DNA of 64,000 bases, taken from the NCBI GenBank assembly GCA_965243155.1, contig CBDEUE010000005.1, positions 1,334 through 65,333 on the forward strand, in the 5' to 3' direction. How positions within the stretch are numbered: the stretch's first letter is position 1; every line of letters begins with the position of its first letter. Below, piece after piece: positions 1-7,906 of the stretch. A program made the translations under genes and the position numbers. Source of the stretch: Spiribacter sp. (GTDB taxonomy: Bacteria; Pseudomonadota; Gammaproteobacteria; Nitrococcales; Nitrococcaceae). Under the pieces are notes generated by a model that was given only the letters and a program-made list of their open reading frames with translations, did not search any database and had not been told where the DNA came from.

Positions 1-604
1 AAAGCCTGCGCCAATCCCGAGTGGCAGCGAGCCAGCCCAGCAGTGGGATGCCGACCAGCACTAGGGTTAAAGGGCCTTTGGCCAGCAGACCGATGGCAAG
101 CCCGATAAAAAACGCCCAGCCCCATAGCGATGCGCCATCACGTAGACAAATGATGACGGCGCTCATTGCGAGCGTGGTGCCCAAGGTCAGAAAGGTATCG
201 GTCATCACTGTGCCCGCGCTGACATAGGGCAGGGCCATGGTTAAGTAAATCGCTGCTGCCAGCACGCCTTGATAGCCCGGGCGCAGTCTGGCGATCAGCA
301 ACACAGTAAGAAGGCTGGCGATCCATGCCGGAAGTCGTGCGGAGAATGCCGAGATATCCAGCAGTCGGAAGCTGATGGCTTGAGCCCAGAATGACGCGGG
401 TGGTTTGCCCCAAAACGGCACGCCAGGCTCAAACCAGGGCGTAATCCAGTCCCCGGTAACCGCCATCAGGCGAGCAATTTCAGCATAGCGAGGCTCTGTG
501 GTGTCAGCGAGTGGCAGAGTCGCCATCCACAGCAGTCGCATCATCAGTACTGCGGCGATGAGCAGCAGCAATCGCAGTGTTGGGCGAGACAAAAAAGCTC
601 CCAA
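1..604 (-). CDS. ArnT/PMT-family (GT83) undecaprenyl-phosphate-sugar-dependent glycosyltransferase, 5' part (runs off window)
   Basis: Not in the ORF track because it has no stop in the window. Hand translation from TTG at about 604 gives LRLLLLIAAVLMMRLLWMATLPLADTTEPRYAEIARLMAVTGDWITPWFEPGVPFWGKPP...SARLPA...MTDTFL...GLLAKGP. The D-x2-E-x-RY, KPP, ARLP and AKGP motifs are ArnT-like. Start codon uncertain. Confidence 0.88.
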   Translation of the reverse strand, partial: MGAFLSRPTLRLLLLIAAVLMMRLLWMATLPLADTTEPRYAEIARLMAVTGDWITPWFEPGVPFWGKPPASFWAQAISFRLLDISAFSARLPAWIASLLTVLLIARLRPGYQGVLAAAIYLTMALPYVSAGTVMTDTFLTLGTTLAMSAVIICLRDGASLWGWAFFIGLAIGLLAKGPLTLVLVGIPLLGWLAATRDWRRL

Positions 605-609
605 GGGGG

Positions 610-1985
610 TCAGTTAGCGTGTGTGGCCGCGTTCAGCCGGATGCAGGCGCGCAGCCCACCGAGATCAGTCGAGCGTGAGAGCTCAAGGGTTGAATCATGT
701 TGTTCACAAATACGCTGGGCGATGGCCAACCCTAAGCCGCAACCCTCCAGTGCATCGCTATGCGGGCTGCTTGCGCCACGCTGAAAGCGCTCGGTGGCAT
801 GGGCAATGAATGATGGATCCATCCCTGGCCCGCTGTCTTCGAGACAAGCCAGTGCGCCGGTGTCGATTGACTGGCAGCAAAGATAAATGTTGCCGCCTTG
901 CGGCGTGTACTGACTGGCATTGGAGAGTAAATTGCCAAAAGCGATTTCAAGTAATGGCGCGTGGCCATGCACCATGACCGTCTGAAGACGGGTCTTGAGT
1001 GTCTGATTGCGCGCCTGGAGCATGGGTTGATGACTTCGGGCAACCGACTCAAGCAGTGCGGCCAGATCAAAGGTCTCCTGGTCAAGCCGTTCATCGCCGC
1101 TGACCGCACGGCTTAGTTGCAGCAGCTGCTCGACGATATGCGCCATGCGGTCGAGACCCTCGCGAGCCTGGCCAAGCGACTGCCGAGTGATTTGACTGAG
1201 TTCTGGGGCTCTGCGGGCATTATCCAGATGAATTTGCGCGCCGGTAATAGGTGTCCGCAGTTCATGGGCTGCGTCGGCGGCGAAGCGTTTCTCGCGCTCG
1301 ATTCCGGCACGCAGCCGCTCAAGCAATCCATTGATGGCATTGAGTAGCCCACCCAGTTCACGCGGTGTACCGTCAGTGGAAACTGGCGATAGCTCCCTAG
1401 GTGTTCGCGTCTCGACTGCTTGAGCGACCCGGTCGATGCGTCGCAGTGCATACGTCACCGTCCACCACAACAACGCGCCGATGATCGGAATGCCGATGAG
1501 CAGGGGCAGCAAGGCAGCCCCAGCAATCGCAAGCGCAAGCTCATCGCGAATATGCAGTGATTCACTGACGATCACCCAAATGTTAGGTTCGGGCTGCATG
1601 GCATATACCCGCCAGTCTGCGCCGTTGATGTTGAGGTTCTGAAAACCTGGCTGAACGCTCGCCGGCGCGATCACCGGGGCAAGGGGCCTGAGTGCAAAAC
1701 ACGCTCGTTATCACGCCAAATCTGGAATGTCTCCAGTGTCTGGTAATCGGGTTCTTCTCCCGATTGCGCCGACAAGACCTGAGCATGGGTTGGTCCGATG
1801 ACGCCAGAGACGCGCTCCTCGGCATGTGCCTGGGCGATCAATGCAGCATATTGCAAGAGTCTTGCATCGAAGACCTCATCGGCTTCATGGCGGCTGCCAT
1901 CATAGCCAATGTAAGCAGCGCTCAGGGCTAGAAAGGTGACAGCGGGTAGCGAGGTTGCCAGTAAAAACCGTCGCAAGGACTTCAT
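610..1985 (-). CDS. PmrB/QseC-family sensor histidine kinase (split by one apparent single-base deletion near 1676-1679)
   Basis: ORF 1671..1985 has TM1 and the HEADEVFD (ExxE) periplasmic motif. ORF 610..1674 has TM2, HAMP, H-box FAADAAHELRTP, N-box NLLSNASQY and G-boxes DSGPG/GCGLGL. Adding one base gives 459 codons. Confidence 0.88.
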
Positions 1986-2653
1986 TCCATTCTCCGCAGC
2001 CGATAGCCTATGCCACGGACCGTCTCAACACGCTCATGGCCTAGCTTGCGTCGTAGATTGTGGATATGGACTTCAATGGCATTACTGCTGACATCATGGT
2101 CTTCGCCGAAAATGGCGGTTTCTAGCTGAGAGCGACTGCGGATCTGGCCGGGATATTCGATAAGCATGCGCAGCAGCTCGAATTCTCTTAGAGACAGGCT
2201 TAGCGGCTCGCCGTCAAGGTATGCCTGCCGATCCTCGGGGTCGACTCGCAGCTTGCCATGACTGATGGTGCGAGTGCTGCTGTGACGTCGCTGTAGGGCT
2301 CGCAGTCGTGCGAGCAGTTCTTCGAGTTCGAAGGGCTTGGTCAGGAAATCATCCCCACCCAGATCCAATCCAGAAATCTTATCGCGCAGTGTGTCCCGGG
2401 CGGTCAGGATAAGTACCGGGAAGGCTATGCCCCGGCTGCGCCAGCCTTTGAGAATATCTAGGCCGTCGATCCCCGGCAGGCCTAGATCCAGGATGCAAAT
2501 ATCGAATCCACTGTCAGGCGAGATAACACGCGCTCGGGGTCCATCCCGATACCAGCTCACCGTGTAGCCTTCGGACTCGAGTGCTTGACGGATGCCTTCA
2601 CCAATGAGCCGATCATCTTCAACTAACAGCAGTCTGCTCTTATCACCCATCAT
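1982..2653 (-). CDS. PmrA/QseB-family (OmpR-type) response regulator
   Basis: LLVEDD, ILDLGLPGIDG, LILTARD, DDFLTKPF and winged helix SNAIEVHIHNLRRKLG...TVRGIGY. Start taken as MMGDK, overlapping the SDR stop. Confidence 0.93.
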   Translation of the reverse strand: MMGDKSRLLLVEDDRLIGEGIRQALESEGYTVSWYRDGPRARVISPDSGFDICILDLGLPGIDGLDILKGWRSRGIAFPVLILTARDTLRDKISGLDLGGDDFLTKPFELEELLARLRALQRRHSSTRTISHGKLRVDPEDRQAYLDGEPLSLSLREFELLRMLIEYPGQIRSRSQLETAIFGEDHDVSSNAIEVHIHNLRRKLGHERVETVRGIGYRLRRME

Positions 2654-6509: not shown

Positions 6510-7508
6510 TCAAATCAGTCTTAGTGCCTGCTCATCTGGATATTGCTTGGATTGCGCAGACTGCGCGCTGTCCTCTGCCACCAAAAAAATCGGGCGTTGT
6601 TTGGACTCGATATAGATACGGCCGATGTACTCGCCGAGTACGCCTAAACACAGCAGCTGAACGCCGCATAAAAAAGTGGTCAGCGTAATGATCGAGGCAT
6701 AGCCGGGAGTTGTAATGCCAAACAGCAGCGTACGGGCGACTTCCCATAGTCCGAACGCACCGCCAAGGCCGGCAGTGATCACCCCCAGTGCTAGGGCAAT
6801 GCGCAGTGGTTTTGTTGAAAATGAGCTGATGCCATCCATGGCGAATCCTAATAGTTTCAGATAACCCCATTTGCTGCGCCCAGCAGCCCGAGTTGCTCGG
6901 TCAAATTCAAGCGTGACGGTTTTCATGCCAACCCAAGCGAACAGGCCTTTCATATAGCGATTTCGCTCGGGTAATGTGTTGAGTGCATCAACCGTGCGCC
7001 GGCTCATTAATCTGAAATCACCGACATCAACGGGGATGTGTGCATCGCTGATTCGATTAAGCAGGCGGTAGAACAAACTTGCGCTCGTGCGCTTTAGCCA
7101 AGATTCACCGGCACGGGTGCGTCGTCGCATCAGCACCACGTCCGCACCGGCCACATGGGCATCCAGCATCTGTGGAATCAACTCAGGGGGATCCTGCAGG
7201 TCGGCATCCAGCAAAACGACAGCCGCGCCGCGGGCATGGGCAAGGCCCGCCGAAACCGCGGCTTCTTTGCCGAAGTTGCGCGAAAGTTTTAAGACGCGAA
7301 TCTGCGAATGACGCGCGCGTGCGGCCATTAGTAAGCCGACGGAGTGATCTTTACTGCCGTCATCGACGAATAACAGCTCTGTCTGGCCTTCGATTGATGT
7401 CATTACTCGAGCCAAACGACGCAGGAGCAAAGGGATGACCTCTGCCTCATTATGAATGGGGATGATGATGGTCAGGCGCGGTATGGGCAGATGGGGATTT
7501 GCGGTCAT
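6510..7508 (-). CDS. GtrB/ArnC-like GT2 undecaprenyl-phosphate glycosyltransferase
   Basis: IIPIHNE, VDDGSKD, LSRNFGKEAA, DADLQDPPELI, GDFRLMSR and two C-terminal TM helices ending GEYIGRIYIESKQRP. Confidence 0.93.
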   Translation of the reverse strand: MTANPHLPIPRLTIIIPIHNEAEVIPLLLRRLARVMTSIEGQTELLFVDDGSKDHSVGLLMAARARHSQIRVLKLSRNFGKEAAVSAGLAHARGAAVVLLDADLQDPPELIPQMLDAHVAGADVVLMRRRTRAGESWLKRTSASLFYRLLNRISDAHIPVDVGDFRLMSRRTVDALNTLPERNRYMKGLFAWVGMKTVTLEFDRATRAAGRSKWGYLKLLGFAMDGISSFSTKPLRIALALGVITAGLGGAFGLWEVARTLLFGITTPGYASIITLTTFLCGVQLLCLGVLGEYIGRIYIESKQRPIFLVAEDSAQSAQSKQYPDEQALRLI

Positions 7509-7866
7509 TGAAGACAAACCTCCGGGCGGTGAGAAAGTGGGTCGCGGTAATCATGGCCGTTGCCAAAACTTGAGAAGACGTCATGCCGATGCCACCGGCA
7601 TGGGCTGAGGAGAACACGATGAGGTTGATCAGCCAGAGCCCAATAGCCGTGATGCAATAGCGAGGCAGTGCTTCTCGATGACGGCGGTTGGAGCGAAAAG
7701 TAAGCCGATGATGAGTGATGTAATTCAGCCCCATTCCTGCCAGTGCACCAATCGCTGTGGCGGTGATTGCCCGAGTGCCCGATTGGATGAGGCCAGCCAT
7801 GACACCCCAATGCAGTAGAGTTGCGGCCACTCCTGAGGCTAGAAATTTTGCGATTTGCTCGAGCAT
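7450..7866 (-). CDS. GtrA-family flippase (Und-P-sugar translocase)
   Basis: About 125 aa with 4 hydrophobic segments; KFLASG...NY..HHRLTF...RRFVF pattern; directly upstream of gtrB. Confidence 0.85.
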   Translation of the reverse strand: MLEQIAKFLASGVAATLLHWGVMAGLIQSGTRAITATAIGALAGMGLNYITHHRLTFRSNRRHREALPRYCITAIGLWLINLIVFSSAHAGGIGMTSSQVLATAMITATHFLTARRFVFNDRKSPSAHTAPDHHHPHS

Positions 7867-7889
7867 GACCCAGAGCTTGCCGGTAAAGG

Positions 7890-7906
7890 CTTAACGCATC
7901 CTTAAT
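7890..7906 (-). promoter_or_regulatory. Second PmrA/QseB-type box upstream of gtrA
   Basis: + strand CTTAAC-GCATC-CTTAAT. On the minus strand a -10-like CAAGCT again lies 10 nt after the box and 7 nt before the gtrA ATG. Confidence 0.72.

Follow-up and report, generated by a model that had tools for sequence, protein, structure and literature searches.

What is a gene annotated as a 'thermostable hemolysin' doing inside a set of genes for surface glycosylation? The question is raised by one end of a 64,000-nt stretch of a Spiribacter sp. genome (the window; coordinates are window positions, its first letter being 1, unless they carry the prefix C5, the whole contig, or that of another contig or locus). 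Between positions 1 and 7906, nine minus-strand genes follow each other in the order gtrA, gtrB, Thl (the hemolysin-family gene), a TauD-like gene, a ligase gene, a short-chain dehydrogenase/reductase (SDR) gene, a response regulator (RR) gene, a sensor histidine kinase (HK) gene and a gene for a glycosyltransferase of family GT83. A first-pass annotation made from the sequence had listed nine co-oriented genes in this order, and they are confirmed: all lie on the minus strand and from Thl through HK neighbouring genes overlap by 4–20 nt, while 68 nt separate gtrB from Thl. We distinguish two modules, the glycosylation triad gtrA–gtrB–GT83 (module A) and the Thl cassette with its two-component system (TCS; module B). 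With moderate confidence we conclude that the locus is a horizontally acquired island of 8.9 kb, in which modules A and B are probably co-regulated by the PmrA/BqsR-type TCS that belongs to the cassette.

The boundaries of the island follow from comparison with related genomes. Window 1–8200 has no DNA match in 19 genomes of the same genus, and synteny with them begins at 8221, inside glnE. A protein-level search did not find Thl and GT83 in 40 relatives. In its first 353 nt, C5 carries the C-terminal coding end of a gene (gene X) that lies directly upstream of glnE in G008, a complete genome of the genus. Since gene X and glnE are adjacent in the island-free synteny of G008, about 8.9 kb have been inserted between two neighbouring core genes. 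The island has the GC content of its surroundings (0.57), no flanking direct repeats were found at its ends, and neither an integrase nor a tRNA gene is among its annotated open reading frames (ORFs). The LpxL-like and core genes nearby are native neighbours of glnE. The proximity to a lipid A/core cluster, which the first-pass annotation had pointed out, follows from the insertion point and is incidental.

Module B is a recurrent gene cassette. Of 401 genomes sampled from the class Gammaproteobacteria, 35 contain PF12261, the Pfam family of Thl, each in one copy. At 32–33 of these 35 loci Thl is flanked by the same ligase, an oxygenase, usually a heme-oxygenase-like diiron oxygenase (HDO, PF14518), and the same SDR; most of them also carry a tetratricopeptide repeat (TPR) protein and a QseB/PmrA-like RR–HK pair. 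Metagenome loci were retrieved with an alignment query (a single-protein query retrieved none) and counted from a length of 6 kb (n = 46). They show the same cassette as far as each reaches, the longer ones in the full form Thl–ligase–HDO–SDR–TPR–RR–HK–cupredoxin–FTR1–F6. At L028 (15869–17680), L055, L057, L060, L066 and others, the genes after HK encode, in turn, Cupredoxin_1, an iron permease of the FTR1 type and a protein of 227 aa without family assignment, giving a unit of ten genes. The TPR protein of L028 (13273–13932) has a weak NCBIfam match to BstC, a sterol-transporter outer-membrane protein (40 bits vs a 350-bit cut-off), which may reflect generic TPR similarity or hint at lipid trafficking. 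No eptA was seen beside the cassette in five complete genomes.

In the window, Thl, an adenylate-forming (ANL) ligase, an oxygenase, a PRK09072-type SDR and a QseB/PmrA-like TCS stand together on one strand at 610–6441, which places the locus among these cassettes as a variant. A TauD-type oxygenase between Thl and the ligase replaces the diiron HDO, neither a PF14518 enzyme nor a TPR protein being encoded in this cassette, and the cupredoxin–FTR1 tail is missing; a carrier-protein gene was also not found in the island. TauD replaces HDO at L040 as well, and at L049, the closest relative fetched (Thl 52% identical), which shares the layout, its TauD gene being intact, likewise has no TPR gene and follows glnA–ntrBC. 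In Vibrio parahaemolyticus, VP1729 is annotated as thermostable hemolysin, VP1731 as iron-containing redox enzyme and VP1735 as response regulator (PMC10469919), and VP1729–VP1735 appears to be the same cluster. This delta-VPH locus (VP1729–VP1735/36) represents the founding family of Thl, PF12261, and its annotations match the cassette Thl–ligase–HDO–SDR–TPR–RR–HK of most sampled genome loci; the island differs in its TauD-type dioxygenase, in the absence of TPR and cupredoxin–FTR1 genes and in its position within gtrA–gtrB...GT83. In the Vibrio literature the delta-VPH gene figures only as a hemolysin marker, and a literature search found no functional study of PF12261, the gene cluster or the VP locus tags.

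The structure predicted for Thl points to an enzyme. The model, built from a 34-sequence alignment, has a pLDDT of 91 and was compared with known structures using Foldseek and VIA-align. The acyl-homoserine lactone (AHL) synthases RpaI and TofI (Z 16.9) and LasI and BjaI (Z 16.1) scored highest, followed by FeeM (Z 15.2), with generic GNATs at or below 14; superposition on AHL synthases and FeeM gave an rmsd of 2.3–3.3 over 158–173 residues. Thl is hence predicted to be a GNAT-fold acyltransferase of the LuxI/FeeM branch, in agreement with the GNAT-like fold foreseen by the first-pass annotation. Although RpaI, BjaI, MesI and FeeM are the best structural matches (Z 15–17, 160–173 aligned residues), Thl is only 8–15% identical to such enzymes, with EIGNLA as its β4 motif. 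At the sequence level, neither the Autoind_synth (PF00765) nor the FeeM (PF21926) Pfam model matched Thl, PF12261 being the only Pfam match and FeeM a weak Atlas lead, and a profile of the 34 members found no match among PDB sequences. AHL synthases and FeeM acylate an amine from acyl-CoA or acyl-ACP, which fits the ligase as constant partner of Thl. In G350 (C3, 7476–10376, minus strand) a single ORF of 966 aa comprises both Thl and the ANL ligase, a fusion that argues for direct cooperation of the two enzymes.

These data bear on the name of the family, under which Thl would be a genuine pore-forming thermostable hemolysin. Besides the Pfam name, this reading has on its side the delta-VPH literature, where the gene serves as a virulence marker. 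We regard it as extremely improbable in view of the confidently predicted GNAT fold and the lack of a hydrophobic N-terminal signal sequence. Moreover, Thl always lies inside an enzyme operon, in one genome it forms a fusion with the ligase, and the family is found in many environmental bacteria.

Motifs were also read in two partner enzymes of Thl. An alignment of 33 cassette ligases shows that the A3 and A5 core motifs are kept, while most members have arginine (motif GRxRR) at the position of the A10 lysine. A conserved LPLxxLLEN motif follows A3 in the window ligase and the 32 others. Both GRxRR and LPLxxLLEN are unusual for ANL enzymes and may indicate altered adenylation chemistry. The family is remote from solved ANL enzymes, the best PDB sequence match reaching 50 bits. 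Translation of the TauD-like gene contains the motifs HLE and NTRYMHGRR, so that the HxD/E...H facial triad and the arginine binding 2-oxoglutarate (2OG) are present, with a frame break between them.

Module A contains the parts of a Gtr-type glycosylation system. Three-component systems for polyprenyl-phosphate-dependent glycosylation include GtrABC, ArnC/ArnEF/ArnT, Bordetella LgmABC and Francisella FlmF/FlmK. The island resembles them in combining a GtrA-family flippase, a GT2 polyprenyl-phosphate sugar synthase and a GT-C transferase, and the family matches bear out the earlier proposal that all three are present. It differs from them in that the GT-C enzyme is GT83-like rather than GtrC, and in that six cassette genes split gtrB from GT83. 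GtrB scored 285 bits with PgfS and 183 bits with ArnC, both under the cut-offs. Its named homologs, like those of GT83, are mostly from Marinobacter (69–73% identical for GtrB, 48–52% for GT83). The ArnT structure 5EZM is the sole PDB sequence match of GT83. The identification of GT83 as ArnT nevertheless fails: the enzyme scores 100.5 bits with NF009784 against a cut-off of 567 bits and has no Arnt_C domain. In the 84%-complete genome we found no match for ArnD, and for ArnA only generic formyltransferase and dehydratase paralogs; the island contains no deacetylase. Since both the ArnA/ArnD set and an island deacetylase are lacking, the transferred sugar is probably a common hexose. Orthologs of the GT83-like enzyme, 47–51% identical, occur in G088, G143, G325 and G381, where gtrA, gtrB and GT83 are contiguous (loci L129–L132).

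What joins the two modules in the window is a shared regulatory motif. A direct repeat CTTAAG-N5-CTTAAG was found within 200 nt upstream of Thl at 14 of 35 loci. Sites with at least 11 of 12 matches number 19 in 646 kb of cassette loci, and 15 of these lie within 200 nt upstream of Thl, compared with a background of 0.00125 per 200 nt. The 1.78-Mb Spiribacter genome (G000) contains six sites, four of them inside ORFs; the only two in intergenic DNA are those before Thl and before gtrA. PmrA boxes are similar in form to this repeat. Tandem TTAAG half-sites 11 bp apart in the target promoters are what a PmrA/BqsR-type regulon would show, here at the level of sequence, and the repeat equals the BqsR box of Pseudomonas aeruginosa, TTAAG-N6-TTAAG (PMC13522522). 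A scan for the sigma-70 consensus found no promoter in the island.

The TCS itself is of the same general type without being an equivalog of a named system. The RR scores 224 bits with QseB (cut-off 345) and 216 with PmrA (cut-off 330), the C-terminal part of the HK 191 bits with QseC (cut-off 475) and 176 with PmrB (cut-off 314). In phylogeny the window RR falls into a clade of cassette-linked RRs with support of 95/96. The HK has the sequence HEADE, an ExxE-type motif common to many cassette HKs, just after its first transmembrane segment. Contiguous triads elsewhere have no box. A second link through the TCS genes beside those triads was considered and ruled out, their RRs belonging to another family (34–37% identical). 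The PmrAB-type switch that the first-pass annotation assigned to the locus thus stands in part: a PmrA-type box precedes both transcription units, but the TCS belongs to the Thl cassette and not to the glycosylation arm. The arrangement recalls the PmrAB/BasRS and BqsRS regulons (pmrCAB, arnBCADTEF, PA4773–pmrAB), where an OmpR-family RR and a QseC/PmrB-type HK end an operon and autoregulation is probable. The likeness extends to the form of the box and to GT83 linkage, with a true arn operon in G393: at L044 (G393:C42, 10421–17576) the cassette HK is followed on the same strand by arnT (with Arnt_C), arnB, arnC, a split arnA and arnD. Besides the scores below the PmrA/PmrB and QseB/QseC cut-offs, the island differs in its cargo of Thl, ligase, oxygenase and SDR, which is unlike eptA, arn or speD2E2.

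Is the combination of the two modules found elsewhere? Among the sampled genome loci, GT83 lies near the cassette only in G393, with its arn operon, and in G390, and none of 46 longer metagenome cassette loci has it. Homologs of Thl, GtrB and GT83 do appear to come together on three further contigs, co-location being judged by identical contig sizes and the same sources of the homolog hits: a 9672-nt contig (Thl P0002, 78%; GtrB P0016, 79%; GT83 P0136, 65% identical), a 35627-nt contig (P0003, 64%; P0018, 74%; P0138, 59%) and a 19392-nt contig (P0004, 62%; P0103, 69%; P0137, 58%). These homologs are the three closest for both Thl and GT83, the next best GT83 reaching at most 54%; the GtrB homologs stand among many Marinobacter-type ones of similar identity. 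At least four diverged sequences thus appear to carry the composite, its linkage apparently conserved. The linkage that the first-pass annotation had proposed therefore appears to hold for this group, while about 80 other loci have the cassette without Gtr/GT83. Since the cassette occurs alone at these loci and the contiguous triad without the cassette, a single obligatory pathway of cassette and Gtr/ArnT arm, as had also been suggested, is unlikely. The features of the locus are collected in Table 1.

Table 1. Features of the island within the window, with the family matches or distances on which each assignment rests.
Feature	Position	Strand	Family match or location
GT83/ArnT-like GT-C glycosyltransferase, N-terminal part	1..604	-	PF02366 + PF13231
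Sensor histidine kinase (HK), QseC/PmrB type	610..1985	-	2CSK_N, HAMP, HisKA, HATPase_c
OmpR-family response regulator (RR), QseB/PmrA/BqsR type	1982..2653	-	PF00072 + PF00486
SDR of the cassette	2650..3429	-	PF00106; NF006565 (PRK09072), 317 bits vs 238-bit cut-off
Adenylate-forming (ANL) ligase, distinct family	3414..4910	-	PF00501
TauD/TfdA-family Fe(II)/2-oxoglutarate dioxygenase	4891..5776	-	PF02668 in both pieces
Thl, 'thermostable hemolysin' family	5773..6441	-	PF12261, 143.2 bits vs 27-bit cut-off, residues 31-196
PmrA/BqsR-type direct-repeat box CTTAAG-N5-CTTAGG	6488..6504		end 47 nt upstream of Thl start codon
GtrB-type GT2 polyprenyl-phosphate glycosyltransferase	6510..7508	-	PF00535, 108 bits
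GtrA-family small membrane protein, putative polyprenyl-phosphate-sugar flippase	7450..7866	-	PF04138, 65 bits, residues 7-119
Second PmrA/BqsR-type box CTTAAC-N5-CTTAAT	7890..7906		end 24 nt upstream of gtrA start codon

GT83 begins at ATG 544, as called in the database, or at TTG 604 and runs past the edge of the window; on the contig it is whole (C5:492–1937, 461–482 aa). An ORF at 7505–7912 was tried as gtrA and rejected, being without family match; the GtrA frame is the one listed. A strong GC hairpin flanked by A and T tracts at C5:463–486, some 850 nt ahead of the window, looks like a bidirectional terminator at the end of the island operon; it separates the stop codon of GT83 from the flanking core gene. 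An 18-nt tandem repeat occupies C5:368–403, just past the matched C-terminus of the flanking gene (C5:3–353). Elsewhere in the window, same-genus DNA matches stop at about 12900 and resume at 14941. Since synteny skips 12943–14941, this AT-rich segment (GC ~0.38–0.41), with its KpsS-like Capsule_synth gene, is a second insertion specific to the strain.

Two genes of the island are split as assembled. Relative to intact homologs, the TauD-like gene switches frame by one base at 5126–5133, in a TTTTT run, and its pieces are 55–70% identical to the intact L049 homolog on both sides of the break. The HK is divided over the frames 1671–1985 and 610–1674 by a one-base switch at about 1680–1695, beside CCCC runs, and intact homologs align across both. 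Such breaks could be real, in which case the island would be decaying and non-functional, on its way out of a streamlined genome. Two frame switches in nine genes, the absence of any such break among roughly 25–30 conserved genes on C5 and the small genomes of the genus (1.6–2.2 Mb) speak for decay, and the count on C5 led us to read the frameshifts in this way at first. This reading was dropped after a control in which the ORFs from 400 kb of G008 were compared with the present assembly (1.78 Mb, 84% complete, 20 contigs): 12 of 257 conserved genes were broken likewise, with 17 frame switches, many beside short homopolymer runs. At this rate, one break for roughly every 18 kb that code for protein, some 0.5 breaks are expected in the 8.9 kb of the island, and two are no significant excess. 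Examples of these frame switches lie at C14:302548, C14:314340, C8:34470 and C18:6110 of the Spiribacter genome. The assembly seems to carry systematic indel errors, and split genes in it should not be called pseudogenes without reads. Given this assembly-wide indel rate, the breaks in TauD and HK are probable artefacts and both genes are probably intact in the organism. With the remaining island genes intact and translationally coupled, we consider decay unlikely.

How might the two modules work? In module B, the ANL ligase would activate a carboxylic acid, most likely a fatty acid and probably as the CoA thioester. Thl would then pass the acyl group to an amine acceptor. Tailoring by the SDR and by the oxygenase, of the TauD type in this island and otherwise a diiron HDO, would follow, and the product is likely to be an N-acyl-amide lipid or a lipid-like small molecule and not a protein toxin. 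In module A, GtrB would make a polyprenyl-phosphate sugar, GtrA would flip it across the inner membrane and GT83 would move the sugar to an acceptor on the periplasmic side, for which lipid A and the lipopolysaccharide (LPS) core are the most plausible candidates. The HK, which carries an ExxE-type periplasmic motif, probably responds to metal or envelope stress, and the RR would bind the boxes before gtrA and Thl and so turn on the two arms at the same time. Most likely, then, a single stress-sensing TCS induces both a surface glycosylation and a pathway to an acyl-amide lipid or small molecule; we infer the substrates, product, acceptor and signal. A partial parallel is AlmEFG of Vibrio cholerae, which uses a carrier protein and an LPLAT-family transferase. 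There too an adenylating enzyme and an acyltransferase stand under a PmrAB-like TCS and bring about an envelope change; the island differs in lacking a carrier protein, in its LuxI/FeeM-type GNAT transferase and in the extra oxygenase and SDR. AlmEFG is described as a lipid A glycine modification under VprAB/CarRS (PMC4278540, PMC12012098).

Several observations weigh against co-regulation of two working modules on an acquired island. Most cassette loci have no Gtr/GT83 and most triads no cassette, so that the co-regulation may be a lineage-specific arrangement; L049 shares the TauD variant yet has no gtrAB upstream. The box before gtrA is unusually close to the start codon, and HK and TauD are frameshifted as assembled. 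The arginine at the A10 position also sets the ligase apart, and the cupredoxin–FTR1 end of the canonical operon suggests a role in iron handling no less than one in envelope lipids. Some of these observations suggest other readings. If the cassette product were a small metal-binding or redox-active compound working with the cupredoxin–FTR1 permease, the link to the envelope would be secondary. In many loci the canonical operon indeed runs into Cupredoxin_1–FTR1–F6, the box is of the form bound by BqsR, whose system BqsRS is a sensor of Fe2+, and the HK carries the ExxE-type motif. We hold a role in metal homeostasis to be very unlikely for this locus, as it lacks an exporter, a TonB receptor and the usual enzymes of siderophore synthesis, and the window variant has glycosylation genes in place of the FTR1 module. 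The resemblance of Thl to the CoA-dependent AHL synthases RpaI and BjaI, which are among its top structural matches, suggests a signalling loop. Here ligase and Thl would make a diffusible acylated signal sensed by the adjacent QseC-type kinase, with Gtr/GT83 as members of the regulon. The constant CoA-type ligase would fit such a loop, as would the TCS, which is always linked to the cassette and is probably autoregulated via the box. It is rather unlikely all the same: a LuxR-type receptor is absent, Thl has no match to Autoind_synth in Pfam, and the N-acyl amino acid synthase FeeM reaches a similar structural score. In its type, its ExxE motif, its box and its FTR1/arn neighbours, moreover, the TCS recalls PmrAB and BqsRS, which are sensors of metals and of the envelope.

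The two modules could, finally, act as one integrated pathway, in which a hydroxylated acyl-amino lipid made by the cassette is glycosylated in the periplasm by Gtr/GT83 to give a new glyco-aminolipid. This is quite unlikely in our estimate. The cassette does sit inside the triad, the same box precedes both arms, and Thl, GtrB and GT83 are apparently together on three related contigs; in a variant without the canonical TPR protein, the handling of the product may also differ. Yet the cassette does without Gtr/GT83 at about 80 loci, no gtrAB lies upstream at L049, which shares the TauD variant, the triad stands alone at L129–L136, and the closest solved relative of GT83 is ArnT, a lipid A transferase. 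In its fullest version, a cytoplasmic hydroxylated N-acyl amino-lipid from the TauD-type cassette would be glycosylated in the periplasm by the split triad and reach the outer membrane as a glyco-aminolipid under a PmrA/BqsR-type metal switch, a proposal to which we likewise give little credence. Were it true, a corollary would be that the heat-stable hemolytic activity of delta-VPH comes from the small lipid product of the cassette and not from the protein itself. We therefore retain the reading of two modules on an acquired island, probably co-regulated by the TCS of the cassette.

The finding matters beyond this strain. In Vibrio genomes, members of PF12261 count as hemolysin markers of virulence, yet no role has been established for the family, which occurs in roughly 9% of the sampled Gammaproteobacteria. 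A fold of the LuxI/FeeM type, a ligase, an oxygenase and an SDR as constant partners, and a promoter box of the PmrA/BqsR type turn this label into an enzymatic hypothesis that can be tested. The exchange of a diiron oxygenase for an Fe/2OG dioxygenase narrows the oxygenation step to chemistry open to both enzyme types. In the Spiribacter variant the cassette is wired into polyprenyl-phosphate glycosylation under the same box, which ties its product to the remodelling of the cell surface, and such remodelling governs tolerance to metals and cationic peptides.

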